A stretch of 64,000 nucleotides of DNA from Candidatus Dormiibacterota bacterium (GCA_963833055.1 CAWHWM010000005.1:9321-73320), one strand, 5' to 3'; positions 16,185 to 34,890 are shown, counted from the stretch's first letter. The notes: generated from the sequence alone by a model not told the origin. Made by a program: numbers and translations.

Positions 16185-17474
16185 CTACGCGACGGGCGCA
16201 GCTGCAAGCGAAGTGACCGCCTCCTCGATCACCCCAATCGCGCGATCGAGTTCTTCTTCGCCGATGACGAGCGGCGGCTGGATCCGGACCACGTTCCCGT
16301 GCGCCCCCCCGACCCCGATGAGGACCCCGCGCTCACGGCAGTGGCGCTTCACGGCTGCCGCCTCGGCGACGGCGGGCTCCTTGGTGGCGCGGTCGCGTAC
16401 CAGCTCAACGCCGATCATGAGGCCGGATCCGCGGACGTCACCGACGAGCTCGGACTCGACGGCGAAGGCGTCGAGCCGGGCCATCGCCATCGTCCCAACG
16501 CGCGCCGCACGCTCGGGCAGGCGCTCCTCGAGCAGCATGTCGATGGTGGCGACGCCGGCGGCGCACGACACCGGGTTGCCCCCGAACGTGCTCATGTGAT
16601 CACCGGGTTCGAACGCGTCGGCCACCTCCTCGCGGGCGATGAAGGCGCCGAGCGGGAATCCGCTCGCGATTCCCTTGGCCATGGTCATGATGTCGGGCTC
16701 CACGTCGTATGCCTCGACTGCGAACATCCTGCCGCTGCGCCCGAAACCGCTCTGCACCTCATCGACGATCAGCAGGATGCCGCGAGCATCGAGCAGCTCC
16801 TTCACGCGGCGGAGATATCCCGCGGGCAGCGGGATGATGCCGCCCTCGCCCATGATCGGCTCGACGAGGAACGCGGCAACGTCGTCACTCGTGTCGTAGC
16901 GGATGACGTCCTCGACAGCGTCGGCGCACGCCAGCGAGCACGACCCCGAGCACATCCGGCAGCGATACGGATCCGGCGTCGGCGCGAACGCGATCCCCGC
17001 AATCTGTGCGCCACCGCGGTGCTTGCGCAGCGCGTTGCCGGTGACCGCGAGCGCGCCCGCCGTCCTGCCGTGGAAGGAACTCTGCAGGGCGATGATCTCG
17101 CGCCGTCCCGTGTACGCACGTGCGAGCCGCAGCGCCCCTTCGACGGCCTCGGCGCCGCTGTTGCCGAAGAAGGTCTTCTGCAGCCGTCCCGGGGTGATCT
17201 GGGCGAGCCGCTCGGCCAGGTCCGCGACGACTGGGACGTGATAGACATACGAGCACGAGTGCACGACCTTGTCCATCTGCCGCTTGGCGGCTTCCGCAAC
17301 CTTCGGGGGCACGTGACCCGCGTTGACGACGCCGATTCCCGAGTACAGATCGGTGTACTCGGTCCCGTCGGTCGCGGTGACGGTCGCGCCGCGTGCACTC
17401 TCGACGGTGATGGGCTCGACGCCCGCGAGCGCGCTGGTGTTCACGTAGCGGCGGTACTTCTCGACCGTGTCCAT
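16185..17474 (-). CDS. class-III (aspartate aminotransferase family) PLP aminotransferase, GABA/putrescine-type
   Basis: 429 aa; LIVDEVQSGFGRSG, TMAKGIASGFP (Lys), GGNPVSCAAG. Confidence 0.9.
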   Translation of the reverse strand: MDTVEKYRRYVNTSALAGVEPITVESARGATVTATDGTEYTDLYSGIGVVNAGHVPPKVAEAAKRQMDKVVHSCSYVYHVPVVADLAERLAQITPGRLQKTFFGNSGAEAVEGALRLARAYTGRREIIALQSSFHGRTAGALAVTGNALRKHRGGAQIAGIAFAPTPDPYRCRMCSGSCSLACADAVEDVIRYDTSDDVAAFLVEPIMGEGGIIPLPAGYLRRVKELLDARGILLIVDEVQSGFGRSGRMFAVEAYDVEPDIMTMAKGIASGFPLGAFIAREEVADAFEPGDHMSTFGGNPVSCAAGVATIDMLLEERLPERAARVGTMAMARLDAFAVESELVGDVRGSGLMIGVELVRDRATKEPAVAEAAAVKRHCRERGVLIGVGGAHGNVVRIQPPLVIGEEELDRAIGVIEEAVTSLAAAPVA

Positions 17475-17489
17475 GGTTGCGCGCTCCTC

Positions 17490-18266
17490 TCAGAAAGTTG
17501 GCGGGGTGTTGACCCAGAACAGACGGGTCGTGGCACTGGACTGATTCATCCAGCGATGCTGCTGGGCACTGTGGAAATACAGGGTGTCGCCCGCCTCGAT
17601 GTGGTAGTGCTCGACATCGTCGAGCCACACGTCGAGCTCGCCGCTCAGGACGTAGAGCGCTTCCTCCCCGTCATGAGCGTATGCGCCACCGCTTCCTCCT
17701 CCCGGGGCGACGTTGAAGATGTCGATCTCGAGCACCGCGTTGGGAAACGTGACCAGGTCCTCCATCTCGACACGGTCGAAACCGCGCAACCGGCGGCGCT
17801 CGGCGGAGCGCACCAGCTTCGGGCCGGCGGCGCCGGCCGGAGCTGCACCGAAGAACTCGAGCAGCGTGCCGCCGTATGCCGAAGCGACGCGCTGCAGCAG
17901 CGAAACCGACGGCTCCGCAAGGCCACGTTCCACAAGGCTGAGATACGACGCAGAGATCCCCGCGCGCTCCGCGGCGGTGCGCAACGACAGGCTCCGTCTG
18001 GTGCGTGCCGCGCGAAGTCGCTTGCCGACCACGGGGTCTTCGGGCACGGTTTCGCCTGCGATGAGCGAATGCAGCGCGGGTGGCGCGAAGCCACGCGTGA
18101 GCAGCGCGCGGACGTCGCGCAAACGGGCGATGTCCTCGGACGTGTACCGGCGATGGCGGCCACCGGCGCGCATCGGGCGGATCAGCCCCTTGCGCTCCCA
18201 CGCTCTGAGCGTCGACGGGCTGACGCCGACTCGCCGGGCGACCTCGCCGATCCGGATGTCGTCCAC
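17490..18266 (-). CDS. transcriptional regulator with MerR-type HTH + XRE-type HTH + cupin domain (PuuR-like)
   Basis: GTG 18266 with GAGGAG upstream; IRIGEVARRVGVSPSTLRAWERKGL (MerR), LRTAAERAGISASYLSLVERG (XRE), C-terminal cupin (GGAYAHDGEEALYVLSG...YFHSAQQH); the upstream 198 aa of the 456-aa ORF are an R-rich artefact. Confidence 0.8.
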   Translation of the reverse strand: MDDIRIGEVARRVGVSPSTLRAWERKGLIRPMRAGGRHRRYTSEDIARLRDVRALLTRGFAPPALHSLIAGETVPEDPVVGKRLRAARTRRSLSLRTAAERAGISASYLSLVERGLAEPSVSLLQRVASAYGGTLLEFFGAAPAGAAGPKLVRSAERRRLRGFDRVEMEDLVTFPNAVLEIDIFNVAPGGGSGGAYAHDGEEALYVLSGELDVWLDDVEHYHIEAGDTLYFHSAQQHRWMNQSSATTRLFWVNTPPTF

Positions 18267-18347
18267 GCGGACACTCCTCGACACGACGGGGTGCAGGCAG
18301 CAGGTACGCTGTCCGACCCGGTCGAACTTGTCACTGTTGAGTAGATT

Positions 18348-19662
18348 ATGAGCCTCTGGGCCACCCCCGGTCCGCCGGGTCCGCACACCGCACCACTCGC
18401 CGAGGACTATCGCGAGACCCCGCTCTGGTGGGACGACACGACGTTCCCGGTACTTGATGAGTCCGCGCTGCCAGGAACTGCCGATGTGGTGGTTGTCGGC
18501 GCCGGATTCACCGGGATGACGGCGGCAATTCGCATTGCCTCGCACGGCAAACAGGTGGTGGTCGTTGACAGCGGTGCGTTGGGGGAGGGTGCCAGCGGCC
18601 GCAACGCCGGAATGATCCACGCAGGCGTGCGCCGCGACATCGCGTTTCTCGAGCGCAAGCACGGCCCCGCCGGCAAGGCGCTGCACGACGCGAGCGTTGA
18701 GGCGTATGCCTTCGTGGCGAGGACCGCGGCGGCTGCGGCGCCTGATGCCCATTACACGCAAACCGGGCTGGCTCCATCTCGCACACAGGGCATCGCGCAT
18801 GAAGGGATTGCGCGCGGAGGAGCTCGAGCGCAGGCAGCTGCTCGGCGAATCGACGGTCATGCTCGAGGAACCGGCGCTCGAAAGCGAGTCGCCGTGCCGT
18901 GGGTTCTACGGCGGGATGCTCACCGACAACGGCGCGAGCATTCATCCCGCTCGGTATCTGGCCGGGCTCGTGCGGCTCGCGATCACCAACGGCGCGGCGA
19001 TCCACGCGCACACGCAGGTCCGGTCGATCGAGCGGGTCGGCGCGGGAGTGGTCGTCCACACATCGCGCGGCGATGTCAGCGCCGGCGACGTGCTCGTTGC
19101 GACCAACGGATATACAGACGCCGCAGCCCCCTGGGCACGGCGTCGCATCATCCCGATCGGCAGCTACATCATCGCGACCGAGCCACTTGGCGATGTGCGT
19201 GCGGCGGACGTGAGCCCGCAGCGCCGGATGATGAGCGACTCGCGCAACTTCCTGCACTACTGGCGCCTGTCGCCCGATGGCCGGCTGGTCTTTGGTGGCC
19301 GGACGAGCTTTGCGCCGGTCACCGTGCAGACAGCCCGCGATCGCCTCTACAAAGCGATGATCGCCATGTATCCGCAGCTCGCCGGCGTGCGCATCAGCCA
19401 TGCGTGGACGGGCAACGTTGGCTTCACGCTCGACCAGCTGCCCCACCTCACGCGGTCCGACGGCATCACCTATGCGATGGGCTATTGCGGCAGCGGAGTC
19501 GCGCTCGGCAGCTGGATGGGAACGCTCGCCGGTGAGTGGATTGCCAGAGGTGCCCAGCCGGCCTTTGCGGACATCCGCTTTCCGCGGATCCCGCTGTACC
19601 GGGGGCACCCCTGGTTCCTCCCACTCGTTGGGCTGTACTACTCGTTACTCGATCGGCTTTGA
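18348..19662 (+). CDS. FAD-dependent oxidoreductase (DadA/glycine-oxidase family; gamma-glutamylputrescine-oxidase-like), apparent frameshift near 18768
   Basis: Dinucleotide fold VVVVGAGFTGMTAA...DSGALGEGASGRNAG in frame 0; rest of the protein (ATNGY...GYCGSGV...) continues in frame +1 (ORF 18697-19662). Confidence 0.8.
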
Positions 19663-21234
19663 GCAGTTGCGTCGGCAGTCGGATCTGCCGCCGCTCCAGG
19701 CGTGCTGAGCGCAGCGGCAGCGCCCGCAAGCTCCATCGTTGGACCTCCGGCGATTTGAGCCGCCAGACGGCCGTTCTTCATGACGTACGCAACGGTCTTC
19801 TCACGGAAGAACCCCGTCTTGTTCAGCAGAGCCGCCAGGCCGGTCAGCGGGATGCCGATCACGAACGTGATGATGATCGGCACCGAGTCGCTCGGGTCAG
19901 AGGCGATGACCTGATAACCAACCCAGAACAAGAAGACCCCACCGATGAACGGCAGCAGGCCGGCCAGCAGGAACAGTGAGGGTGAAGTGAACAGCACCTT
20001 TCGGAACGCCCAGGTGCAGGCGAGACCCGTGATCCCGTAGTAGAAGGCAACGAGGACTCCGATCTGGAGGATGAGCTGGCCGAACGTATTCCCGATCGGA
20101 CCCCAGAACGTGGAAATGATCACGACGACGGAGAGCGCGGTTGTGATCAACGTGCCCACCCACGGTGTCTGCCAGTCCTTGTGCACGATCCCGAAGATCT
20201 TCGGGAAGACGCCGTCGCGTGCCATCGAATACGACAGCCGGCTCGACGGGAGCAACGTCGTCTGCACGGTGGCGACGGTTGAGGAGAGGACCGCGAGGAC
20301 CATCAGGTAGGTGATCGGTGCTCCGCTCAGTGATTGAGCGAAGAAGTAGAGGATGTCGCCGCCGTTGTTGCCGATGCTCGTGAGGTTGGACGCGGAGGTG
20401 ACCATATCGATCGCTGTGGCCGAGAAGAGGAAGAGGACGAGCAGCACGACCATGCTGATCAGCCCGGCATAGCCTGGCGTCGTCTCAGCGTCCTTGGACT
20501 CCTCATTGACATTCGCCGCGGTGTCCCATCCCCAGAAGAAGAACACTCCCAGCGCGGCACCGGCGGCCAGACCATCAATGTTGTGCAGCGAGAGCGGGTT
20601 GAACCAGCTCCCCTGCACAGGCTGCGCTGCCGGGTGGCCGCCGAGCACCTTGACCACGGCGGCGATGCAGAAACCGACGACGATGAAGTACTCGATCGCG
20701 AGGAGCACCCACTGGAAGTTGGCGGTCAGGCGGATGCCCTTGACCACCATGTAGGTGACGAACAAAAGCCACGCGACGCCGGCGAAAGCCTGCCAGAACG
20801 CGCTCGATGCAGCGTCAGCGCTGATCCAGCCGAAGCTGTTGAAGAGCTGCAGGGTGTATGCACCGGCAACGATTGGGGCGGCGGCACAGAAGAGGACGTT
20901 GGCGCACAGCTGAACCCACCCGCCAAGCCACCCGATATAGGGGCTCATCGTGCGGCTCACCCACGAGTACGACGCGCCGCAGTTGGGGTCCTGCCGGTTG
21001 AGGTAGTAGTAGGCAAGCGCGATGAACGAGCACCGGGAAGAAGCTCACGAGGATCGCTGCCGGAGACGCGGCGCCAACGGCCACGAAGAGCACTGCGATC
21101 GTCGCCGCAAGGCTGTATGCCGGCGCGACACTCGAGGTCGCGATGATGGTGGCGTCGAAGAGATTCAGGGTATTGGTCTTCAGCTGTGAGACCACCTGTT
21201 TCCCGTGAACGATTGGCTCCGCTAGCGTCGCCAT
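19638..21234 (-). CDS. APC-family amino acid/polyamine permease, apparent frameshift near 21015
   Basis: N-terminal segment (ORF 20815-21234, ATLAEPIV...LFDATIIATSSVAP) and main body (ORF 19638-20960, about 12 TM) are in different frames; joining them restores the conserved SFIALAYYYL segment. Confidence 0.8.
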
Positions 21235-21276: not shown

Positions 21277-22719
21277 TCAGGCTTCGATGTTGCTCATCAC
21301 GTGCTTGATGCGCGTGTAGTCCTCAAACCCGTACATGGAAAGGTCCTTGCCATATCCCGAGTGCTTGTATCCCCCGTGCGGCATCTCGGAGATGAGCGGG
21401 ATGTGCGTGTTGATCCACACGCAACCGAAATCAAGTGCACGTGCCATCCGCATCGCGCGGCCGTGGTCTCGGGTCCAGACGCTCGCGGAGAGACCGTACT
21501 CGACGCCGTTGGCCCATTCGAGCGCCTTTGCCTCATCGTCGAAGCGCTGCACGGTGATGACCGGTCCGAAGATCTCGCGCTGGATGAGGTCGTCATCCTG
21601 GCGGAGACCCGCGATGACCGTTGCGTCGTGGAAGTACCCTCGGTCGCCGACGCGATGGCCACCCGCGACGACGTCCGCGTGGGCCGGCGCGCCACCGACC
21701 AACTCCCGGACGCGGTCGAACTGGCGGGCGTTGTTGAGCGGTCCGAACGCCGCGTCCTCATCGTCGGGAGCACCCGTCTTGTTCACCGCAGCCTGTTCGG
21801 CCAGCGCGGCAACCAAGTCGTCGTGGATCGATGCTGCGGCGAGGACTCGCGTCGCGGCCGTGCAGTCCTGGCCGGCGTTGAAATAGCCGGCCATCGCGAC
21901 CGCCTCTGCCGTCGATGCGATGTCGGAATCGTCGAAGACGATGACCGGTGCCTTGCCGCCGAGCTCGAGGTGCACGCGCTTGAGGTCGCCGGCAGCCGCA
22001 CGGGCGACCTCCATCCCGGCGCGAACACTGCCGGTGATCGATGCCATCGCCGGGATCCGGTGGGTCACCAATGCCGCTCCGGTGCTGGGATCGCCGCACA
22101 CCACGTTGAAGACGCCGGGTGGCAGGAACTCAGCCATGATCTCGGCCATCAGCAGAGTCGTCACGGGCGTCGTGTCCGATGGCTTGAGCACGACGGTATT
22201 GCCCGCAGCGATCGCCGGCGCCCATTTCCAGATCGCCATGAGCATCGGGTAGTTCCACGGCGTGACCTGGGCGCAGACCCCAACCGGCTCGCGACGGATC
22301 ATCGACGTGTGTCCGGTCATGTACTCACCGGCGCTCCGTCCCTCGAGGATCCGTGCGCATCCGGCGAAGAACCGCACCGGGTCGATCAGCTGCGGGATTT
22401 CCTCACTCCGTGTGAGCGAGATCGGCTTGCCGGTGTTCTCGCACTCGAGCGCGACGAATTCCTCGGAGCGCTTCTCGAATGCGTCGGCAATGCGCAGCAG
22501 CGCGAGGCTGCGCTCTCGCGGAGTCGTATCGCGCCAACCGCCGAATGCCCGTTGCGCCGCCTGGAGCGCCGCGTCCACATCGGCGGGGCTGGAGACCGGC
22601 GCCTGGGCAAACTCCTCGCCGGTGACCGGGTTGATCAGGGGCGTGGAGGCATCGGAGCTCGCGTCGCGGTAGTCGCCGTCAACGAAGTTGCGCAGGGTGC
22701 GCACCGCGACAGTGCTCAT
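21277..22719 (-). CDS. NAD(P)-dependent aldehyde dehydrogenase (aminobutyraldehyde-DH-like)
   Basis: ATG at 22719 overlaps the upstream stop (ATGA); ALDH motifs LELGGKAP (Glu) and GQDCTAATRV (Cys), NAD-binding WNYPM. Confidence 0.9.
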   Translation of the reverse strand: MSTVAVRTLRNFVDGDYRDASSDASTPLINPVTGEEFAQAPVSSPADVDAALQAAQRAFGGWRDTTPRERSLALLRIADAFEKRSEEFVALECENTGKPISLTRSEEIPQLIDPVRFFAGCARILEGRSAGEYMTGHTSMIRREPVGVCAQVTPWNYPMLMAIWKWAPAIAAGNTVVLKPSDTTPVTTLLMAEIMAEFLPPGVFNVVCGDPSTGAALVTHRIPAMASITGSVRAGMEVARAAAGDLKRVHLELGGKAPVIVFDDSDIASTAEAVAMAGYFNAGQDCTAATRVLAAASIHDDLVAALAEQAAVNKTGAPDDEDAAFGPLNNARQFDRVRELVGGAPAHADVVAGGHRVGDRGYFHDATVIAGLRQDDDLIQREIFGPVITVQRFDDEAKALEWANGVEYGLSASVWTRDHGRAMRMARALDFGCVWINTHIPLISEMPHGGYKHSGYGKDLSMYGFEDYTRIKHVMSNIEA

Positions 22720-24074
22720 GCCTTGAGGTCTCGCGCCAGTTCGCGGAAGTTGTCGACATAGCGCCTGACGTCCTCCGTCGAGTGCTGGACGGAGAGCGTC
22801 CAGTTCTCCTCGGCGCCCGGCGCCATCAGCACGCCGCGATTGGTCTGATAGAGCCACGAGATATACGCGAGCGACTTGTCCATGGCGGCGTAGTCGCGGT
22901 AGTTGCGAACCGGTTGCTCGCGATAGGTGACGCACCCACGCGCTCCCATCGACACGACATGGAAGGGGAGTGCGTACTCAGCCATGACCTCGCGGAGCCC
23001 GCCACTCAGCTCCTCGGTCAGCGCGTCGAGATGTGAATACGCCTGCCCGGTGAGCACCTCGGTGAGCGTGGCGCGAGACGCGGCGGTGGTGAGCGGATTG
23101 CCGTTGAAGGTGCCGAGCTGCGCCACCTTGCCGTCGCTGATCGTGGCCATGATGTCGGCCCGGCCACCCACTGCGCCGCAGGGGAGGCCACCGCCGATCG
23201 CCTTGGCAAGGCACACGATGTCCGGGACGACACCGAAGCGTTCGGTGGCGCCGCCCGGGGCGATCGTGACGCCGGTCTTGACCTCGTCGAAGATCACAAC
23301 GGCGCCATGGCGATGGGCGATCTCGACCACACCCGCCAGGTATCCCGGCTCGGGAAGCACGAACCCGATGTTCATCATCGCGGGCTCGACGATCACGCCG
23401 GCGACCTGACCCGGATGCGTGGCGAATGCACGCTCGAGCGCCTCGAGGTCATTGAAGCCGACCACCGTGGTGAGCTCGACGGTGGATGCCGGGATGCCGC
23501 CGGTCATCGGCACCGAGTTCGGCTCGGCTTCGTCGCCAACGAGATCCATGTCCGGCTCGACCGAGACGAGGACCAAGTCGTGGTGCCCGTGGTACGAGGC
23601 CTCGATCTTGATGATGCGTTCGCGATCCGTGAAGCCACGAGCCAGGCGGATCGCATCCAGCGTCAACTCCGTGCCGCTGTTGGTGAATCGCCACTGCGGC
23701 TGCTGGAACCGGCGCGCGAGCTCCGTCGCCACGACGATGTTCTCGGCAACCGGTTGCGCGAAGTGCGAGCCACGATGCATCTGCGCATCAACGGCCGCGA
23801 CGATCGCGGGGTGCGCATGTCCGACGACCATGACACCAAAGCCGTTGTGGAAGTCGACGTACTCGTTGCCGTCCACATCCCACACGCGGCTGCCCTTCCC
23901 GTAGTCGATGAAGACCGGCTGCGGCGGCGTGTCCTGGAACGAGCTGGGCACGCCGCGGGGGATCACCTTCTTCGCGTCCTCCCACAGCTCGCGCGAGCGT
24001 GCGCGCTTGGAGCGGAAGACCTCCTCCTCGTGGGAGGTGAGGGCAGCGACCCGATCCGCAGCGACGTCAACCAT
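22716..24074 (-). CDS. class-III aminotransferase, glutamate-1-semialdehyde-aminomutase-like paralog
   Basis: FDEVKTGVTIAPGG, LAKAIGGGLPCGAVGG (Lys), N-terminal HemL-like KKVIPRGVPSSF; start ATG 24074 or TTG 24122. Confidence 0.85.
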   Translation of the reverse strand: MVDVAADRVAALTSHEEEVFRSKRARSRELWEDAKKVIPRGVPSSFQDTPPQPVFIDYGKGSRVWDVDGNEYVDFHNGFGVMVVGHAHPAIVAAVDAQMHRGSHFAQPVAENIVVATELARRFQQPQWRFTNSGTELTLDAIRLARGFTDRERIIKIEASYHGHHDLVLVSVEPDMDLVGDEAEPNSVPMTGGIPASTVELTTVVGFNDLEALERAFATHPGQVAGVIVEPAMMNIGFVLPEPGYLAGVVEIAHRHGAVVIFDEVKTGVTIAPGGATERFGVVPDIVCLAKAIGGGLPCGAVGGRADIMATISDGKVAQLGTFNGNPLTTAASRATLTEVLTGQAYSHLDALTEELSGGLREVMAEYALPFHVVSMGARGCVTYREQPVRNYRDYAAMDKSLAYISWLYQTNRGVLMAPGAEENWTLSVQHSTEDVRRYVDNFRELARDLKA

Positions 24075-24192
24075 GCTCGTAAGCCATTGACCAGGTCCCT
24101 CCAGGACGCCCCGTGGTTGCAAGGAATCCTACTGAACGCCTGTAGAATCAGCGCAACGTTAGACGCAAACCAGTGGGACCGTCAAGCGAACG

Positions 24193-24507
24193 TCAGCGCC
24201 AGTCCACCTCGGTGACCTGACCATCCAGGATCTCGATCGTGATGGTGGCGCAGGGACCTTCGGCCCAGAGCGTCCAGCGGCCCTCGCTGAGCGAGGGGAA
24301 GAGGGCCACCGGCACCGTCTCACCGTGCAGAGAACGCTCGTGCACGCCTGTGTGCGTCCGCGCCTCGGGCTGATCCTCGGGGCTGACCTCGGGCTCGGTG
24401 TGGAGGAGCGCTGCCGGCACGATCACCACCAGCGCTCCTGTTCCCCCACCGATGTCGAGGACCGCCGGCCCGCTTGGAGCGGGGCCGGCGAACTCGATCG
24501 TGTTCAA
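24193..24507 (-). CDS. hypothetical protein (104 aa) co-transcribed with DUF4331 gene
   Basis: ATG overlaps the DUF4331 stop (ATGA at 24504-24507); no domain recognised. Confidence 0.5.
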   Translation of the reverse strand: MNTIEFAGPAPSGPAVLDIGGGTGALVVIVPAALLHTEPEVSPEDQPEARTHTGVHERSLHGETVPVALFPSLSEGRWTLWAEGPCATITIEILDGQVTEVDWR

Positions 24508-25883
24508 CTCGGGGTGTCGAATCCGTTGAGCGGCACGCCCAGGTACGGGAAGTGATCGATGTACCGGTTGTTGGCCGGTACAGCGCCACTGCTGAACTGA
24601 GCGGCTGAGAAGTCGCTGACGACGCCTGCGGCGCCGTCGGGCGTGTAGGACTTGTCCACGAGCGGGATCGTGACGCCGGCGATGGCGCGGATCTCGATGG
24701 TTGCGACGTCGTCGAACACGCGGCGGCCGTTCGGGAACCCTGCGAGGTCACCGCCGAGGATGCCGTTGATGTTCGGCTTCGATGCCGGCGGAATCGCCAT
24801 GTTCAGACGGAGCAGGTCGGCCGGGGTCGACCCGGTCGAGTTCTGGAAGCCCGCAACGATTCCCGAGGGGATTCCCGTCAGCAGGATGGCCTCGAGGTCG
24901 GCACGCGCCGGCTTGTAGGCGGCGAGGTTCGGGAACACACCGGGGTAGAGGACCGGGAGGAGTCCCTGGAGCTCGGGATGGGCGTAGTTCGCGACGAACT
25001 GCGCATCGTTCTGCGGCTCGGTGGAGTTCCAGAAGTCCTTGGTCCCGATGGGGATGACCACCTCATTGATGAGCGGCATGCCGAGGCGCGACACCTGGAC
25101 CCACGGACCGACGTCCATGGTGCGGCCACCCTTGTCCAGCACGGTCGACTTGCGGCGGCTGGCGGTGGTGTACACGCCGATGACCGAGTCCGCGCTGGTC
25201 GGGTCGGTGGGCATCTCGCCGTTCTTGGTGAGGTTCGTCTTGGGGATCTGGATGGCGATCGTGTGGACGTTGAGGTGCTTCGTGGAATCGACGCCACCGA
25301 CGGCCGGCAGCGGGATCAGGTGCAGGTTCTGGAACGGACGCAGCGCGCCGAGGTCGAAGATCGATCCGAGGTCGACGTAGAAGCCTTCACGGCGCTGGCC
25401 GGCGAACACCCATCCACCGTCGAGCGCATGCACCGCGGAACGTGCGAGCGCGCCGTAGTTCGGGGTCGAGCGCACGCCGACATTCACCGGCGGGCACGCG
25501 AGCTTGCTCGCAAGCACTTCGGACTTGCCGTGCTTGATCTTGGTGACCGAGTAGAACTGACGGACGTTCCAGCTCGAGCTGGTCAGGCTGGTGATCGGCC
25601 CGGTGTTGTACAGGAACGTGTTCGGGTCGGTGTACTCGGTGGTGAACGCGAACTGATAGGTGATCGCGTCGGCGACGCTGCCGCCGTTGGTGACCGTGAT
25701 CTCGTAGAGCACGTCGTCGCCGAAGTTGTAGAAGTTCGGTCCGCCGTCCGGTCCCTCGAGCGGGATGTAGTTGGCGATCAGCGTCACCGTGTCGGGATGA
25801 TCCGGGCTGGTGAACGCGTAAAGGTCAGTGCTGTCTGCAACCGGGTCCTGCGAGATCCCGGGTGCTTCACGATGCGAAGACAT
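24504..25883 (-). CDS. DUF4331-family protein
   Basis: 459 aa starting MSSHREAPGISQDPVADSTDLYAF, an N-terminal signature I recall for DUF4331; beta-rich, no obvious signal peptide. Confidence 0.75.
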   Translation of the reverse strand: MSSHREAPGISQDPVADSTDLYAFTSPDHPDTVTLIANYIPLEGPDGGPNFYNFGDDVLYEITVTNGGSVADAITYQFAFTTEYTDPNTFLYNTGPITSLTSSSWNVRQFYSVTKIKHGKSEVLASKLACPPVNVGVRSTPNYGALARSAVHALDGGWVFAGQRREGFYVDLGSIFDLGALRPFQNLHLIPLPAVGGVDSTKHLNVHTIAIQIPKTNLTKNGEMPTDPTSADSVIGVYTTASRRKSTVLDKGGRTMDVGPWVQVSRLGMPLINEVVIPIGTKDFWNSTEPQNDAQFVANYAHPELQGLLPVLYPGVFPNLAAYKPARADLEAILLTGIPSGIVAGFQNSTGSTPADLLRLNMAIPPASKPNINGILGGDLAGFPNGRRVFDDVATIEIRAIAGVTIPLVDKSYTPDGAAGVVSDFSAAQFSSGAVPANNRYIDHFPYLGVPLNGFDTPS

Positions 25884-25926
25884 GTGTACCCCTCGTGAGG
25901 ATGTGAATGCTGTTGTGGTGGGCGGT

Positions 25927-26196
25927 TCAGCGCGCTGCGCGCTGGAGACGCCGGATGAGCTGCGGGTCCTTGGTCACGACCTCGCGATGGCCGACCATCA
26001 CGGCGATCTCGCCGGTCGCCGCGTCGCGCACGTACGCGGTCATGGGCGCGCTCGACACTGGACCGTCACTCGCATCGGCGACGTTCTGCGCCGCCTCGAC
26101 GAGCGTGCTCGGCCCGGCGAGAAGCCCCATCGCCGCCACTCCGCCCGCTGCCCCCACTGTCGTGGACAGAAACGTCCGCCGTGTCACCTTGGCCAT
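25927..26196 (-). CDS. small protein with twin-arginine (Tat) signal peptide (89 aa)
   Basis: MAKVTRRTFLSTTVGAAGGVAAMGLLAGPSTLVEA: RRxFL motif, h-region, AxA cleavage-site-like. Confidence 0.6.
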   Translation of the reverse strand: MAKVTRRTFLSTTVGAAGGVAAMGLLAGPSTLVEAAQNVADASDGPVSSAPMTAYVRDAATGEIAVMVGHREVVTKDPQLIRRLQRAAR

Positions 26197-26335
26197 GTGT
26201 ACACCTCTGCTGGAGCGGTCGTTGGCGATCCGGTTGGCCGTCTTGTCACCGCCCTGTCACCGCTTGGTACGGACGGCTCCGTGTGCCGGATCACTGCCCG
26301 CCGCCGGCATGCACGCCGGTGCGGTGCGACGCGTC

Positions 26336-27010
26336 TCAGGTCCAGGCGGGGACGAGCACCTCGACGCTGTCAGCGGTGACACGCGTCTGGATCGCAGGCA
26401 GAGGATTCAGGCGATAGTCGCCGGGATTCGCCGCGCCCGTGAGGTTGAAGCTCATGGGATGGCACGGGCAGACGAGCTTGCTCTGGGACGCCTCGGGAAC
26501 CAGCGTGCAGCCCTGATGCGTGCAGACCGCGCTCAGCGCCTGGACCTTGTCGTCGAGCGTGAAGACGACGCCCTGCAGGCCGCCGGCGGAGAACTGCTTG
26601 ATCCTGCCCGGCTTGACGTCATCGAGGGTCGCGACGGCCACCCACGTGCTGATGTACGGCTGGATCGTCCCGCCGCCGCTGGCCGGTGCCGTGAGCGCCT
26701 CGCGCAGCCCTTCAGCACCGATCCCGGCGGCGACGGACGCCGCGACAGTCGCCAGCCCACCGACCAGGAAACGCCTGCGGCGGATGCCCGCCTCCGTCCA
26801 CCCGGGCTCGTGGCCCTGTGCGTCGCGTAGCTGACGCGCGAGGCCGTCGACGAATGCCGGCGACGGGGTCGACCCACCTGGGTGCGCCGCGCGCAGCCGC
26901 GTGGCAACCTGCATCGCCGCGGAATCGTCACCTGCTGGGATGCGCGGCGGCCGGCGGTTGGCGATGAGCGCCTTGACGAAGCGCGCGAGGCGGCGGTCAG
27001 CTTTCGACAT
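26336..27010 (-). CDS. Rieske [2Fe-2S] domain protein with cytoplasmic N-terminal region and internal RRxFL-TM anchor (candidate anti-sigma factor)
   Basis: ATG 27010 lies 14 nt inside the ECF sigma gene; Rieske boxes CTHQGC and CPCHPMSF; RRRFLVGGLATVAASVAAG around residue 85. Confidence 0.75.
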   Translation of the reverse strand: MSKADRRLARFVKALIANRRPPRIPAGDDSAAMQVATRLRAAHPGGSTPSPAFVDGLARQLRDAQGHEPGWTEAGIRRRRFLVGGLATVAASVAAGIGAEGLREALTAPASGGGTIQPYISTWVAVATLDDVKPGRIKQFSAGGLQGVVFTLDDKVQALSAVCTHQGCTLVPEASQSKLVCPCHPMSFNLTGAANPGDYRLNPLPAIQTRVTADSVEVLVPAWT

Positions 27011-27527
27011 CACGAACTCCCGTGGCGGCCGCTCGGCGCAGGGCGCGGAGCTGCAGCACCTTGGCGTTGGCAACGCTCACGCCCATCGCCGCCGCGGTCT
27101 CCCGTATCGAGTAGCCGCGCAGAAACCGGAACTCGAGGACACTCCGGTAGTTGTCCGGGAGCCCGTCGAGGATGGGGCTGACGTCCACGTCGTGCTCGCG
27201 CTCCGGGGGCTGGGTGGCATCGCGCTGATCATCGAACTCCATCAGGACCGTCCCGTGGCGCTGCCGCCACACGTCGGCGAGCACGCTGCGAGCGGTGGTC
27301 CGCAGGTATGCGCGGGTCTCCGCGGCCGAGACGTCGGAGCGGAGCCTCGGGAGTGCCCGGAGGAAGGTGGTCGAGGTCACGTCCTCGGCGTCCGCTGTAT
27401 TGCCGGTTCGCGAGTAGACATACCGATAGAGAGGAGCCACATGCTCCTGGTAGACGGATTCCCAGTCGTTCGAGCGATCTGGGCCGCCAACCACGCGAAG
27501 CGGGGGCGGCGATTCAGGAACGGCCAC
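26997..27527 (-). CDS. ECF-type RNA polymerase sigma-70 factor
   Basis: Region 2 (VAPLYRYVYSRTGNTADAEDVTSTTFLRA) and region 4 HTH (YRSVLEFRFLRGYSIRETAAAMGVSVANAKVLQLRALRR). Confidence 0.85.
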   Translation of the reverse strand: MAVPESPPPLRVVGGPDRSNDWESVYQEHVAPLYRYVYSRTGNTADAEDVTSTTFLRALPRLRSDVSAAETRAYLRTTARSVLADVWRQRHGTVLMEFDDQRDATQPPEREHDVDVSPILDGLPDNYRSVLEFRFLRGYSIRETAAAMGVSVANAKVLQLRALRRAAATGVRDVES

Positions 27528-27602
27528 TGTCGTTCATGTTCTACGGATCGGGGTTACGCAACCGGCCGTTCGGGGCATGATTGGCACAGAGGGTTTTTCG
27601 CC

Positions 27603-28652
27603 ATGAGTTCCGACGCTTCCCACGACCGTCTCATCGGGACAGTCTCGCTGGTCCTGGATCGGATGGTGCACGTGCGCCTGACCGCCGTCGGCATCACTCG
27701 CCCGGATTCGATCGACCGCACTCCGGCCGATCCCGTCGAGTTCTGGGAGCAGAGCCGGGTCCACGATCCACATCCCATCCATGTCAACCGCGAGTGGGAA
27801 TCGCTCGGCGGCCCACGCTGGCGTGAGCTCGAACTCGAAGGTGACAGCGTCGGCCCGGGGCACCACTGGGGCAGCCGGCACCTGGTCGCGACGGCGCACG
27901 TCCGCCGCGAGCCGGGACCTGCTCCGTTCGTGCTGCTGCTCCACGGCTACGCGGTTCCGCAGACCACCTACGACCGATGGCTCGCCCGGCAGATGCGCAT
28001 GCGGGGCGCCCACACCGCCAGGCTCGACCTGCCGTACCACCTGCGCCGGACGCTGCCACATCAGCGGAGCGGCGACGGGTACTTCAGCCTCGACCCGGCT
28101 CACATCCGCGCGGTGGTGCGCCAGACCGTCGAGGACGCCGCCGCCATCGTCGCGTGGGCTCGCGCGGAGGTCAGCCCGTACGTGACCGTCGTCGGCGTGA
28201 GCCTCGGCGGGCTCATCGCCACCCAGCTGGCGGCGCACCTCGAGCTCGACCGCGTCATCGCCGTGGCCCCATTCTGCGATCCCGCGACGACGCTATCGCA
28301 GCGACCACCCACCCCGTCGCTGCGCCACCTCGGCATGATCGGCGAGCACACCGTCTCCTGGGGTCCCGACCGGGCCAGCGCGGGTGCGTTCCTGCAGGCG
28401 ACGCTTGCCCCGCTCGTGGCGCGCAACCTGACGCCGCGAACGCCGGGCAGCCGGATCACGCTGGTGCGCGCCATGCAGGACCTGGTGGTCGGCCCGGACC
28501 CCGTCACGCAGCTCGCCGACGCGTGGAACACGGACCTGTGGACCTACCCGCACGGCCACATGAACGTGATGAGCGCCAGTGGGATCGCCCGGCGGATCGC
28601 CGACCTTGCGACCAGGATGCACGACGAGCCCGGCCTGTCCGTCGCGGTATGA
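27603..28652 (+). CDS. alpha/beta-fold hydrolase
   Basis: ATG 27603 (upstream part of the 583-aa ORF is an R-rich artefact); nucleophile elbow GVSLGG; HG oxyanion-like LLLHGY. Confidence 0.7.
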   Translation: MSSDASHDRLIGTVSLVLDRMVHVRLTAVGITRPDSIDRTPADPVEFWEQSRVHDPHPIHVNREWESLGGPRWRELELEGDSVGPGHHWGSRHLVATAHVRREPGPAPFVLLLHGYAVPQTTYDRWLARQMRMRGAHTARLDLPYHLRRTLPHQRSGDGYFSLDPAHIRAVVRQTVEDAAAIVAWARAEVSPYVTVVGVSLGGLIATQLAAHLELDRVIAVAPFCDPATTLSQRPPTPSLRHLGMIGEHTVSWGPDRASAGAFLQATLAPLVARNLTPRTPGSRITLVRAMQDLVVGPDPVTQLADAWNTDLWTYPHGHMNVMSASGIARRIADLATRMHDEPGLSVAV

Positions 28653-32709: not shown

Positions 32710-33162
32710 TCAGTTCCCGACACCACCGACGCCCGCCTGGATCGACGTCACGGCCGCGTACACGACGGCGAGGAACAGGATCGTGATCACGACCGCGACG
32801 ATGCCGGTGACGATGCCGGTGATCGCCATTCCCTTGCCGCCACCGCCGTGCTCATTCGCATGGCGAACCCCGATCGCCCCGAAGATGATCGCCAGCGCCC
32901 CGAGCACGATGCTGATGTAGTCGACGAAGGGGATCCAGCAGAGCACCACCGCGACGATGCCGCACACGCCACCGGTGATCCCGAGGCCATTGCTTGGGGC
33001 GACTGCGGGATATCCCTGCGGCACCTGGGAGTACCCGTACTGGCTGCCCTGGGGCGGATATCCCGGCTGCTGGGGTGGCAGCCACTGCGGCTGGCCGGGA
33101 GGAGCCCCCTGGGAGCCGTCCCACTGCGGCGGTTGCTGCGGAGCGTCTGGAGCGTCAGGCAT
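32710..33162 (-). CDS. DUF4190-like small membrane protein (proline/glutamine-rich N-terminus + 2 TM)
   Basis: MPDAPDAPQQPPQWDG...PQGYP then GITGGVCGIVAVVLCWIPF and second TM; architecture recalled as DUF4190. Confidence 0.7.
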   Translation of the reverse strand: MPDAPDAPQQPPQWDGSQGAPPGQPQWLPPQQPGYPPQGSQYGYSQVPQGYPAVAPSNGLGITGGVCGIVAVVLCWIPFVDYISIVLGALAIIFGAIGVRHANEHGGGGKGMAITGIVTGIVAVVITILFLAVVYAAVTSIQAGVGGVGN

Positions 33163-33195: not shown

Positions 33196-33741
33196 CTAGG
33201 TGGCCGGAGGTGGCGGTGGTGGCGGCGGCGGCGAGGTCGGAAGCTGCGGCCTCGAGAGTGGCGCGGTGGCCGGCTGCGGTTCCGACCGTAGCAGGTAGCC
33301 TCCGACACCGACGGCCGCAGCGGCGATGATGCCGATGAAGACGCCAAAGCTCGGCCCGGACGAGTAGCCAGGAAGGTCCGAGTAGATCGCATACACCGAT
33401 GAGTACCCGCCACCGGTCACGAGCCACAGCAGTGCGCAGAGGATCATCACCACGCCGATGCCCAGGTAGATCGCCGCGTCCGTGAAGGGGAGGGCGGGAA
33501 TGCTCACCTGGGGCACGAAGGTCCGGATCACGAAGAGCGCAAGACCGACCAGGATCGCCAGGAAGAAGATCCAGCCCGACCAGTACCCGAGCGCATCGTG
33601 GCCTCCGCTGTCGAGGCCGCTGAAGGTCGGGATGGTCGTGCTGTGCCACGGGAGGAAGGTGTCGATGAGCCCGACGACGAGCCCGCCGGCGACCACGAGG
33701 CCGCCATTCGACACCTGCTTGCCAGCGACGTTCATTGGCAC
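33196..33741 (-). CDS. paralogous polytopic membrane protein P1 with C-terminal poly-Pro tail
   Basis: 4 predicted TM; motifs FLPWHS, GYWSGW, IRTFVP..IPALP; ends TSPPPPPPPPPPAT (10 consecutive Pro). Confidence 0.7.
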   Translation of the reverse strand: MPMNVAGKQVSNGGLVVAGGLVVGLIDTFLPWHSTTIPTFSGLDSGGHDALGYWSGWIFFLAILVGLALFVIRTFVPQVSIPALPFTDAAIYLGIGVVMILCALLWLVTGGGYSSVYAIYSDLPGYSSGPSFGVFIGIIAAAAVGVGGYLLRSEPQPATAPLSRPQLPTSPPPPPPPPPAT

Positions 33742-33765
33742 CTCACACGTCCGTCGGAACGTTGG

Positions 33766-34308
33766 TCAGACGGACGCCGGCGGAGGAGGTGGTGGCGGGG
33801 TCCCAGACGGTGTCTGGTACGCGCTGAAGGGCTTGGTTGCCGGCTGTGGATCCGAGCGCTTGAGGTAGCCACCGACCGCGACGACGATGCCCATGATCAG
33901 ACCGATGATCAGCCCGAAGCTCACGCCGGCGGAGTAACCGGGCCCGGAGAACGACGCCGGAGCGCCGAGCAGGAGCCAGAGGAGCGCCGCAACGGCCATC
34001 ACCACGCCGACCACGATGTACGTCATCGAGTCGTTCAACGGCAGGGCCGGGATGGCCACGGTCGGAGCGAAGGTCCGGAGGATGATCAACGCGAGTCCGA
34101 TCAGCACGAACAGGAAGAAGAACCAACCCGTCCAGTAGCTCAACCCGCCGACGGACGCGCTGTCCGAGAACCCGCTGGTGACTCCGGCGATGCTGCCGGT
34201 GGAGTACGAGTAGCTGTACCAGGGAAGGAAGAGGGCGATCAGACCGATGATCAGTCCGACGCCGACCGCAATGTCCCCATTCGAAAGTCTCTTGCCTGCG
34301 ATGTTCAC
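33766..34308 (-). CDS. paralogous polytopic membrane protein P2 with C-terminal poly-Pro tail
   Basis: Roughly 40-50% identical to P1 by eye (FLPWYSYS, SYWTGW, LRTFAP..IPALP); ends GTPPPPPPPASV. Confidence 0.7.
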   Translation of the reverse strand: MNIAGKRLSNGDIAVGVGLIIGLIALFLPWYSYSYSTGSIAGVTSGFSDSASVGGLSYWTGWFFFLFVLIGLALIILRTFAPTVAIPALPLNDSMTYIVVGVVMAVAALLWLLLGAPASFSGPGYSAGVSFGLIIGLIMGIVVAVGGYLKRSDPQPATKPFSAYQTPSGTPPPPPPPASV

Positions 34309-34332
34309 GTGTGTTTCTCTCCCTCTTGTTGC

Positions 34333-34890
34333 TTATGCGCTTGGCGGTGGTGGCGGTGGCGGGCTGCCGTAACCGCCTGGTGGATTGCCGTAGCCGCCGA
34401 CGTTGGGGGTGGCCACCAGCGGCACGTCACCCGGCCACCGGCTGATCACGACGATGTACCACACGATCCCGTAGACGATCACGCCGAAGATCAGCCCGAA
34501 AATGGCGCCGCCCGCGGAATATCCGCCCAGCGTGTAGATCCCGCTGTACGCGACGATGTTCCCGATGGCGCCCACGATGGCGCCGAGGAACGCGAGCGCG
34601 AGTGCGTAGATCACCAGCCGCTTGCCGGCGCGGTTCATGCTGTACATCTGGAACCCGCCGATCGCGCCAATGATGTCTGCCACGAGGCCGATCAGGATGC
34701 CGATGAGCCAGATGCCGCCGAAACCGCCTGCAGCGAGGCTGAAGAGGGAGAACAGGCCGCCGATCAGGCCGCCGAATACCGCTCCAATGAGCGCCAGGAT
34801 GCCGATGACCAGCCCAAGGATCTTCGCGTTGACGTTCAGCTTTACCGGTGGGTTCGCCGCAAACGGCGGGTCAGTCAGGATGTTGGCCAT
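34333..34890 (-). CDS. glycine-rich polytopic membrane protein P3 with C-terminal poly-Pro tail
   Basis: Gly-zipper-like TM helices (GLVIGILALIGAVFGGLIGG...), ends GSPPPPPPPSA; same strand and spacing as P1/P2. Confidence 0.65.
   Translation of the reverse strand: MANILTDPPFAANPPVKLNVNAKILGLVIGILALIGAVFGGLIGGLFSLFSLAAGGFGGIWLIGILIGLVADIIGAIGGFQMYSMNRAGKRLVIYALALAFLGAIVGAIGNIVAYSGIYTLGGYSAGGAIFGLIFGVIVYGIVWYIVVISRWPGDVPLVATPNVGGYGNPPGGYGSPPPPPPPSA

Follow-up and report, generated by a model that had tools for sequence, protein, structure and literature searches.

Five minus-strand genes at positions 24193-27527 of a 64,000-nucleotide (nt) stretch of Candidatus Dormiibacterota DNA (GCA_963833055.1, CAWHWM010000005.1:9321-73320; the whole stretch is here called the window, with positions counted from its first letter) raise the question of whether neighboring genes for an extracytoplasmic function (ECF) sigma factor, a Rieske-domain protein, a small protein with a twin-arginine translocation (Tat) motif, a DUF4331 protein, and a protein of 104 amino acids (aa) constitute a single system. 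A first-pass annotation, made from the sequence alone, had read them as one operon under a dedicated sigma factor, forming an envelope redox or stress-response device. All five genes were confirmed in the list of open reading frames (ORFs) and the domains assigned to them were borne out by profile searches. The genes and their regulatory elements are the following:

24193..24507, minus strand: 104-aa protein (orf104), TTG start, overlapping the DUF4331 stop codon (TTGA); conserved after leaderless DUF4331 genes
24504..25883, minus strand: DUF4331 protein, 459 aa, no signal peptide (PF14224)
25927..26196, minus strand: 89-aa twin-arginine protein (tat89), above the TIGR01409 cutoff
26197..26265, minus strand: leader of about 70 nt between the promoter-like motif and the tat89 start, nearly invariant in 25 Dormibacterota sequences
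26266..26291, minus strand: ATCCGGCACACGGAGCCGTCCGTACC, putative SigK-type promoter motif of the cassette (ATCC-N16-CCG[TA][TA]), conserved in 28/29 Dormibacterota loci
26336..27010, minus strand: Rieske-domain membrane protein, 224 aa (PF00355)
26997..27527, minus strand: ECF-type sigma factor, 176 aa (Pfam Sigma70_r2 and Sigma70_r4_2, TIGR02937)
27542..27557, minus strand: GTAACCCCGATCCGTA, motif 5' of the sigma gene, family form GTA[AT]C-N6-7-CGTA

The locus was resolved into two independent units lying side by side, a sigma/Rieske pair and a tat89/DUF4331/orf104 cassette. This division, together with the invariant N-terminus of the DUF4331 protein, the complementarity of export signals in cis and in trans, and the ECF-type promoter of the cassette, is much firmer than the complete mechanistic chain proposed for the locus below. 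Neither unit was found characterized in the searchable literature, in which DUF4331 was not mentioned, and the DUF4331 protein had no matches among PDB sequences either as a single sequence or as a profile, in line with the earlier statement that nothing in the module has an assigned role; no member has a characterized homolog.

Gene units and their probable promoters

Loci were compared by tblastn, using seven window proteins as queries against 80 genome loci encoding a DUF4331 relative. The tat89, DUF4331, and orf104 genes occurred together in Dormibacterota, Chloroflexota, and Actinomycetota (Kribbella, Nocardioides, and others), while the sigma and Rieske genes adjoined this cassette in Dormibacterota only. 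The five genes were thus not co-conserved as a single module would require, since the cassette stood without the pair in Actinomycetota and Chloroflexota and the pair was also found without the cassette. The nearest genomic relatives of the window were Candidatus Dormibacterota metagenome-assembled genomes from peat and permafrost (85-93% amino-acid identity). As the synteny in this phylum also included unrelated flanking genes for a class III aminotransferase and an aldehyde dehydrogenase, the adjacency of pair and cassette says little. Locus L089 shared the upstream synteny of the window (acetyltransferase, glutamate racemase, and polyprenyl synthase genes) and lacked the cassette.

Gene boundaries were re-examined in the same region. 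The longest ORF of the Rieske protein begins at 27073, but homologs conserve the N-terminus MSKADRRL, which is obtained from the ATG at 27010; with this start, the 14-nt overlap with the sigma gene had been reported correctly. The overlap between the DUF4331 and 104-aa genes had been given as ATGA, but the 104-aa gene starts with TTG and the shared bases are TTGA. The Rieske and tat89 genes of Dormibacterota are separated by a 139-nt gap, in which a variable part after the Rieske stop codon gives way to about 110 nt that were almost invariant, and the cassette box (TGATCC-N15-CCGTACC, 26266-26291) stood at the start of this near-invariant stretch. Because a conserved promoter-like motif lies within the gap, a single operon is not what the sequence suggests. 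A consensus scan found no terminator on the minus strand after the Rieske gene, and the hairpins present at this place in most orthologs were no better than those of shuffled sequence. The conserved leader was also considered as a riboswitch, a candidate that was rejected on the basis of no Rfam family match, a non-significant fold z-score (-0.21), and one covarying pair in RNAalifold.

The cassette box recurred well beyond Dormibacterota. Over the 450 nt preceding DUF4331, 28/29 Dormibacterota loci and 27/48 other loci contained the pattern ATCC-N15-17-CG[AT]A, whose background frequency in the remainder of these loci was 0.053 per 450 nt, and the Actinomycetota loci carried CCATCC-N15-CCGAAT at the equivalent place. 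On a Pseudoalteromonas plasmid, an ECF sigma and anti-sigma pair was encoded directly upstream of DUF4331; the anti-sigma factor carried RskA_C, the best PDB match of the sigma factor was Mycobacterium tuberculosis SigK (E 9e-26), and the SigK-like sigma gene and DUF4331 each had GCATCC-N15-CCGTT in front. Further GCATCC or CAATCC boxes stood before DUF4331 in Marinobacter, Lichenicola, Paracoccus, and Adhaeribacter (set L084, L087, L092, L093), and CCAATCC-N15-CCGAAT preceded an mpt83-like fasciclin gene found together with DUF4331 on a Streptomyces plasmid. SigK sites are reported to be conserved across genera, with mpt83 as the core target and a signal that is still unknown (PMC7509140). 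The DUF4331 operons are therefore probably ECF-dependent with SigK-type specificity, judging from these boxes. In its two blocks (ATCC-N16-CCG[AT][AT]), the cassette promoter matches the form of the Pseudoalteromonas boxes, a probable likeness to the SigK/RskA regulons of Actinobacteria and some Gram-negatives (ECF18/19; mpt70/mpt83 in M. tuberculosis) that is drawn from the Pseudoalteromonas case and the usual form of the SigK consensus. If correct, the promoter link would offer a lead on the purpose of SigK/RskA signaling; in the literature searched, nothing useful was found on RskA together with metals.

The adjacent sigma factor is probably not the driver of the cassette. Its best PDB relatives by phmmer were 6dxo, SigL, and SigE, and SigK (4NQW) was not reached at E<0.01, whereas the Pseudoalteromonas sigma factor, used as a control, matched 4NQW at 9e-26. 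The SigK-type box upstream of tat89 is a feature of the cassette and not of the sigma gene. Conversely, the motif GTA[AT]C-N6-7-CGTA had a single match in the window, upstream of the sigma gene (27542-27557), with no match upstream of tat89; the same motif preceded the sigma gene in L089, L090, L091, L096, L097, L098, and L099 and additionally the gene following the Rieske gene in L096, L097, and L098. Thus, of the dedicated ECF control proposed earlier, ECF-type control itself is likely in view of promoter boxes in several phyla, and the assignment of that control to the neighboring sigma factor was not upheld. A shared promoter pattern for the sigma and tat89 genes (ATSC-N16-CGTAMC) was tried and set aside: it hit only those two sites in the window, had been derived from them, and is probably coincidental because distant loci have TGTAAC and the conserved sigma-family motif is missing at tat89.

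In three Kribbella/Nocardioides loci (L034, L040, L059), a perfect palindrome (TGTGATC-CA-GATCACA) lay between the promoter box and the tat89 start, followed in L034 and L040 by a second one (ATGCGA-N5-TCGCAT). By their form, these palindromes resemble operators at which a dimeric repressor could add a further layer of control to the ECF promoter.

The DUF4331 protein and its proposed export

The DUF4331 protein matched PF14224 over its full length (E 3e-135, 452 bits, profile positions 1-421 of 421). The family comprises at least 8,000 clusters at 90% identity in at least seven phyla, including the culturable genera Kribbella, Nocardioides, Pseudoalteromonas, and Marinobacter. The protein starts M-SSHREAP (SSHREAP codons at 25860-25880), as did 116/120 close, leaderless homologs. 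A tblastn search of annotated plasmids returned 35 DUF4331 records, of which 11 were inspected; together with locus L080 they gave 12 signal-bearing homologs from Thermoleophilia, Streptomycetaceae, Acidimicrobiales, Alpha-, Beta-, and Gammaproteobacteria, and Bacteroidota, with signals of the general secretory (Sec) type. In all 12, the predicted signal-peptidase site fell directly before the same residues (...A|SSHREAP). Alignment of 13 sequences from five phyla at 37-66% identity identified S2 S3 H4 R5 E6 A7 P8 as the longest invariant run and H4 as the only invariant His; many other residues far from the N-terminus were invariant as well.

Amino-terminal Cu(II)- and Ni(II)-binding (ATCUN) sites consist of a free amino group and a His at position 3 (NH2-X-X-His), and initiator Met is removed before Ser. 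The AxA cleavage sites of the signal-bearing proteins and Met excision before Ser in the leaderless ones point to a free N-terminus in both groups. The mature S-S-H of 12/12 signal-bearing and 116/120 leaderless proteins fits the ATCUN sequence rule, with His at position 3 and a residue other than Pro at position 2, such that the N-terminus is a candidate ATCUN-type Cu(II)/Ni(II) hook. It shares a precise, free N-terminus and an extracytoplasmic place with other sites that use the N-terminal amine (serum albumin; the histidine braces of CopC, YcnI, and lytic polysaccharide monooxygenases; the Ni-hook of nickel superoxide dismutase). DUF4331 has His at mature position 3 and seven invariant residues rather than three, and it differs from the histidine braces, which have His at position 1, and from the Ni-hook, which has a Cys that the DUF4331 N-terminus lacks. 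An N-terminal Ni/Cu hook would give a very abundant uncharacterized family a concrete hypothesis that is cheap to pursue.

The signal-bearing relatives are plainly extracytoplasmic. Genes neighboring theirs encoded a sortase F or formed a type II secretion cluster, and the Bacteroidota homolog (L087) carried a long extra C-terminal extension. On Sulfitobacter, Paracoccus, and Jannaschia plasmids (L086, L093, L095), genes for DUF4331 and a lipoprotein of about 75 aa adjoined a full type II secretion cluster, L093 and L095 having a prepilin peptidase gene as well, and DUF4331 may be a secreted substrate there. In Streptomycetaceae (L083/L094), the DUF4331 C-termini displayed a hydrophobic stretch and an Arg-rich tail, and in L094 a class F sortase gene (7791-8534) lay between DUF4331 and a TPR gene, which together suggest cell-wall anchoring in L094.

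The leaderless clade was consistently accompanied by tat89 or an analog. The tat89 protein comprises a twin-arginine motif (TRRTFL, 26167-26184), a hydrophobic region, and a conserved C-terminal segment of about 35 aa, and scored 20.8 bits against TIGR01409 (cutoff 16.7). It has no redox or cofactor motif, and the redox role that would fall to the 89-aa protein as one of the two Tat-exported redox or partner proteins postulated earlier was not supported. In 76 loci, ORFs with a twin-arginine motif and a hydrophobic stretch were sought that ended between -30 and +200 nt from the DUF4331 start. Such a mini-ORF, homologous or analogous to tat89, stood before every leaderless DUF4331 gene (75/75) at a median gap of 43 nt. 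Among the 76 loci it was missing only from L080, in which DUF4331 has its own signal peptide, and it preceded 0/12 signal-bearing genes (the 11 plasmid homologs and L080). This complementarity suggests export as a Tat hitchhiker; read most simply, tat89 would provide DUF4331 with an export signal in trans. On these features, tat89 looks like an export carrier and not a redox partner.

Tat hitchhiking is known from the HybO/HybC subunits of [NiFe] hydrogenase. There, as in DmsA/DmsB, a signal-less cargo is likewise encoded beside its twin-arginine partner, and the DUF4331 cargo, as a presumed metalloprotein, would likewise undergo cytoplasmic assembly alongside an accessory protein of a His-rich family. 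In contrast to these systems, the putative carrier tat89 is a mature peptide of about 50 residues with no cofactor motif rather than an enzyme subunit, and other clades of the DUF4331 family use an ordinary signal peptide in cis. If true, a dedicated mini-carrier would be a new variation on hitchhiking, and a tat89-type carrier could be a tool for exporting folded proteins that need their native N-terminus.

The 104-aa protein had been described as an orphan, but 1,253 clusters at 50% identity make up its family, which has neither a name nor a Pfam model. The orf104 gene lay directly downstream of leaderless DUF4331 in three phyla. No signal peptide was found in the protein, which was predicted as a seven-strand beta-sandwich (AlphaFold2 predicted local distance difference test, pLDDT, 87.5). 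His-rich tracts were present in 35/43 homologs outside Dormibacterota and in 30/145 representatives of the family (at least 5 His in 12 residues), at variable places (N-terminus, C-terminus, or an internal loop). Such variably placed tracts are characteristic of Ni/Co/Zn chaperones, and orf104 is proposed as a putative cytoplasmic metal-binding partner or chaperone. Like the His-rich nickel metallochaperones HypB, UreE, SlyD, and CooJ, it is a small, presumably cytoplasmic protein whose relatives often carry His tracts at lineage-variable positions, and its gene lies beside that of its putative client; it has no sequence or fold relation to them, and the window copy has no His tract. In two Chloroflexota loci (L025 3124-3903, L027 4652-5560), orf104 was fused to a C-terminal domain of about 190 aa with no Pfam match, which was not found in the window, and in a third (L081 9497-10381) a 294-aa gene with no Pfam match followed DUF4331.

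Metal-related genes recurred beside DUF4331 in other lineages. TPR genes and HupE/UreJ (HupE_UreJ_2), NicO-like, or "nickel transporter" genes followed DUF4331 in Marinobacter, Pseudoalteromonas, Comamonadaceae, Lichenicola, and two Streptomycetaceae. In Thermomicrobiales (L027), the genes following the cassette were a strong NicO match (E 5e-103) and two ferritin-like genes, one of which also encodes a cupredoxin domain. A TonB-dependent receptor gene adjoined DUF4331 in Adhaeribacter. No HupE, NicO, TPR, ferritin-like, fasciclin, or SigK/RskA homologs were present in the 64-kb window. Nickel is favored as the metal because ATCUN sites take Ni(II) in a reducing cytoplasm, because of the His tracts, and because of the NicO neighbor.

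The sigma/Rieske pair

The sigma factor contains Sigma70_r2 at residues 26-90 and Sigma70_r4_2 at residues 120-165 (Pfam), no other sigma domains, and scored 57 bits against TIGR02937 (cutoff 42.9). Restriction to the sigma-2 and sigma-4 domains and a size within about 170-200 aa correspond to the traits of ECF group 4. PF00355 was the sole Pfam family matched by the Rieske protein (E 2e-13, residues 122-194), with the ligand boxes CTHQGC at residue 163 and CPCH at residue 181. Its layout runs from a conserved domain (residues 1-65) through RRRRF(LVGG) and a hydrophobic helix (77-100) to the Rieske domain, and the N-terminal domain is probably cytoplasmic with the [2Fe-2S] domain facing outward. 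The TAT_signal match of the window protein itself was weak (E 0.3); among homologs, 10/12 matched TAT_signal and 7/12 the Rieske-type Tat-signal profile.

This architecture was retained at full length in homologs at 36-52% identity, and in the contexts examined the gene always directly followed that of a sigma factor of about 175 aa, with a 4-nt overlap in L089, L090, L096, and L097. Within the N-terminal domain of about 65 residues, R19, P21, A36, A42, P49, F53, and L57 were invariant down to 36% identity. In L098 (3711-3926) and L099 (575-790), a 71-aa stand-alone copy of this domain was encoded between the sigma and Rieske genes, overlapping each by 4 nt, which indicates an independent sigma-associated module. 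The genes beyond the Rieske gene varied, comprising a convergent GGDEF gene (L089), a convergent dehydrogenase gene (L090), cupredoxin and metallophosphoesterase genes (L096, L097), and a gene for a 218-aa membrane protein (L098, L099).

From its architecture and gene coupling, the Rieske protein is probably an anti-sigma factor or sensor; it looks like the membrane partner of the sigma factor instead of the redox partner of DUF4331 envisaged by the first-pass annotation. As a single-pass membrane protein translationally coupled to the sigma factor, it would hold that factor with its cytoplasmic N-terminal domain of about 65 residues, and the [2Fe-2S] domain, placed outside the membrane via the twin-arginine motif, would act as a redox or iron-sulfur sensor. 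Class I anti-sigma factors (RsrA, RslA, RskA) share the gene overlap with the sigma factor, a short N-terminal domain, one helix, and a variable outside sensor, and here too the N-terminal domain also exists as a separate small ORF near the sigma gene. The Rieske protein differs from them in matching no anti-sigma domain family and in that the twin-arginine motif precedes the outside Rieske domain; likewise, the window pair differs from SigK/RskA in a sigma factor that is not SigK-like and a partner with a Rieske domain rather than RskA_C (PF10099). No description of an anti-sigma factor with a Rieske domain was found in the literature searched, and Rieske proteins are not mentioned in the main text of an ECF classification paper (PMC7826278). 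If true, a Rieske-domain anti-sigma factor would be a new sensor type for ECF signaling.

In three Rieske homologs (P0317, P0319, and P0320, the last being L089 6001-6687), CTDQGC replaced CTHQGC. As Asp takes the place of one His ligand, the [2Fe-2S] cluster is suggested to be altered or lost in part of the family.

Proposed mechanism and alternatives

The proposed chain combines the two units as follows. The cassette would be transcribed from its own SigK-type ECF promoter and would make an extracytoplasmic metalloprotein, DUF4331, that needs a free Ser-Ser-His-Arg-Glu-Ala-Pro as an ATCUN-type hook, most likely for Ni(II) and alternatively for Cu(II). In most bacteria, the protein would be exported by Sec, signal peptidase would expose the N-terminus, and metal would be supplied outside the cell by the neighboring HupE/UreJ- or NicO-type membrane proteins and the TPR protein. 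In the clade of the window, which has no signal peptide, Met excision would expose the same N-terminus in the cytoplasm, where DUF4331 would fold and be loaded with metal with help from orf104 before crossing the membrane by Tat, riding on tat89. A signal in trans would be required on this second route because a cis signal would block the N-terminal site until after export. The Rieske protein would separately serve as an anti-sigma factor. Taken whole, with metal binding, the identity of the metal, Tat hitchhiking, and the chaperone and anti-sigma roles as its inferred links, this chain is offered tentatively and at somewhat less than even probability. Of the envelope redox or stress device, it would keep the envelope location and the Tat export, both plausible along with ECF-type control, and give up the joint redox module. 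The elements are known in kind (ECF sigma/anti-sigma pairs, Tat hitchhiking, N-terminal metal hooks, His-rich chaperones), and their combinations are new. A wider claim would make DUF4331 a large cross-phylum class of secreted metalloproteins with the invariant processed N-terminus as their working part, two interchangeable loading routes (one through a new His-rich chaperone family), a minimal Tat "signal peptide in trans", and the rank of a core SigK-type output, and its Rieske neighbor the first Tat-exported Rieske anti-sigma factor; it is speculative and, as a package, rather unlikely. Dormibacterota are soil bacteria thought to live on trace gases via nickel and copper enzymes, for which envelope metal handling would be physiologically relevant.

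Several observations weigh against the proposed chain. The 75/75 count does not represent 75 independent events because the leaderless clade is probably one lineage. The invariance of the DUF4331 N-terminus extends to R-E-A-P, suggesting a site more specific than a generic ATCUN. The DUF4331 structure model was poor (pLDDT 57), and of the fold and metal site hoped for from it, the confidently predicted part gave a beta-sandwich while no metal site could be read. All 30 Dormibacterota-type copies of orf104 (>60% identical), the window copy among them, had no His tract, and the fold search returned a generic sandwich of the CnaB/transthyretin-like type, with no match that pointed to a specific function. 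A single transporter superfamily accounts for the HupE_UreJ_2 matches as well as the weak NicO/DsbD_2 ones, whose "nickel" label is annotation only, and cupredoxin neighbors make copper an alternative metal. Profiles of the Rieske N-terminal domain run against Pfam and PDB matched no anti-sigma family, giving Tat-signal matches only.

Reading the five genes as one operon or regulon under the adjacent ECF sigma factor, with the Rieske protein and tat89 serving DUF4331 as redox partners in a redox or stress device of the envelope, draws on the co-directional order kept in about 25 Dormibacterota genomes and on a CCGTA element before both the sigma gene and tat89. The ATSC-N16-CGTAMC pattern also hits only these two upstream sites, though it was derived there and is not independent. 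Moreover, the cassette occupies the slot of the downstream targets (cupredoxin, membrane protein) in other sigma/Rieske loci, and Rieske proteins and cupredoxins are classic electron-transfer partners. The conserved order carries little weight, however, in view of synteny that reaches unrelated flanks, and pair and cassette are each found without the other. The motif shared by the sigma family and its targets is missing upstream of tat89, the cassette box is SigK-like and common to phyla with no adjacent pair while the window sigma factor is not SigK-like, and tat89 has no cofactor motif. A joint operon is therefore considered unlikely.

DUF4331 could instead be an extracytoplasmic scavenger, and not a metalloenzyme, whose N-terminal hook captures Ni, Co, or Cu outside the cell and feeds HupE/UreJ- or NicO-type importers, with induction by ECF control on metal shortage. 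The repeated adjacency to HupE/UreJ and NicO genes, the TonB-dependent receptor gene in Adhaeribacter, the secreted or surface location in many lineages, and the tight binding of Cu(II) and Ni(II) by ATCUN sites are all consistent with scavenging. This role appears improbable: in the clade of the window, neither a transporter nor a TPR gene adjoins the cassette, and none lies in the 64 kb; the Tat route, which carries folded proteins, and a cytoplasmic protein with His-rich relatives fit loading before export better, and 450 residues with many invariant positions far from the hook are large for a simple binding protein. Invariance of R-E-A-P beyond the needs of an ATCUN site, together with the N-terminal Ser nucleophiles known in N-terminal nucleophile (Ntn) hydrolases, would also suit a leaderless DUF4331 that stays in the cytoplasm, with Ser-Ser-His as a catalytic or modification site and tat89 as an unrelated small secreted protein. 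Such a cytoplasmic role is very unlikely: the cis signal and the trans Tat mini-ORF are perfectly complementary (75/75 versus 0/12), all other DUF4331 clades are exported, His tracts and metal-transporter neighbors indicate metal, and the confident part of the fold, in an otherwise poor model, is a beta-sandwich and not the alpha-beta-beta-alpha sandwich of the Ntn type. The tentative metalloprotein chain remains the preferred reading of the cassette.

The genes surrounding the two units were also inspected. On the 3' side of the cassette, the minus strand encoded a class III aminotransferase, an aldehyde dehydrogenase, and an amino-acid permease (21277-24122), by look a polyamine or gamma-aminobutyric acid (GABA)-type catabolic set, and further on a second class III aminotransferase with a MerR/HTH/cupin regulator (16185-20960). 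An aminotransferase/aldehyde dehydrogenase pair or gabT was identified within about 5 kb of DUF4331 in three Kribbella loci and on a Comamonadaceae plasmid (L056, L062, L077, L088). The arrangement of the window was repeated in L091, a Dormibacterota contig (ERZ25039460 contig_6362) in which the DUF4331, aminotransferase, and aldehyde dehydrogenase genes were each fragmented, probably by uncorrected long-read frameshifts and not as pseudogenes. Divergent from the sigma gene and about 80 nt away, the plus strand carried an alpha/beta hydrolase-like gene (about 27611-28652), at whose position L089 and L091 had an ORF of 351-356 aa with no Pfam match. Further upstream, three tandem minus-strand ORFs of about 180 aa (33196-34890), the first two 51% identical, encoded hydrophobic proteins that span the membrane several times, end in poly-Pro tails, and match no Pfam family, adjoined at 32710-33162 by a DUF4190 membrane protein.

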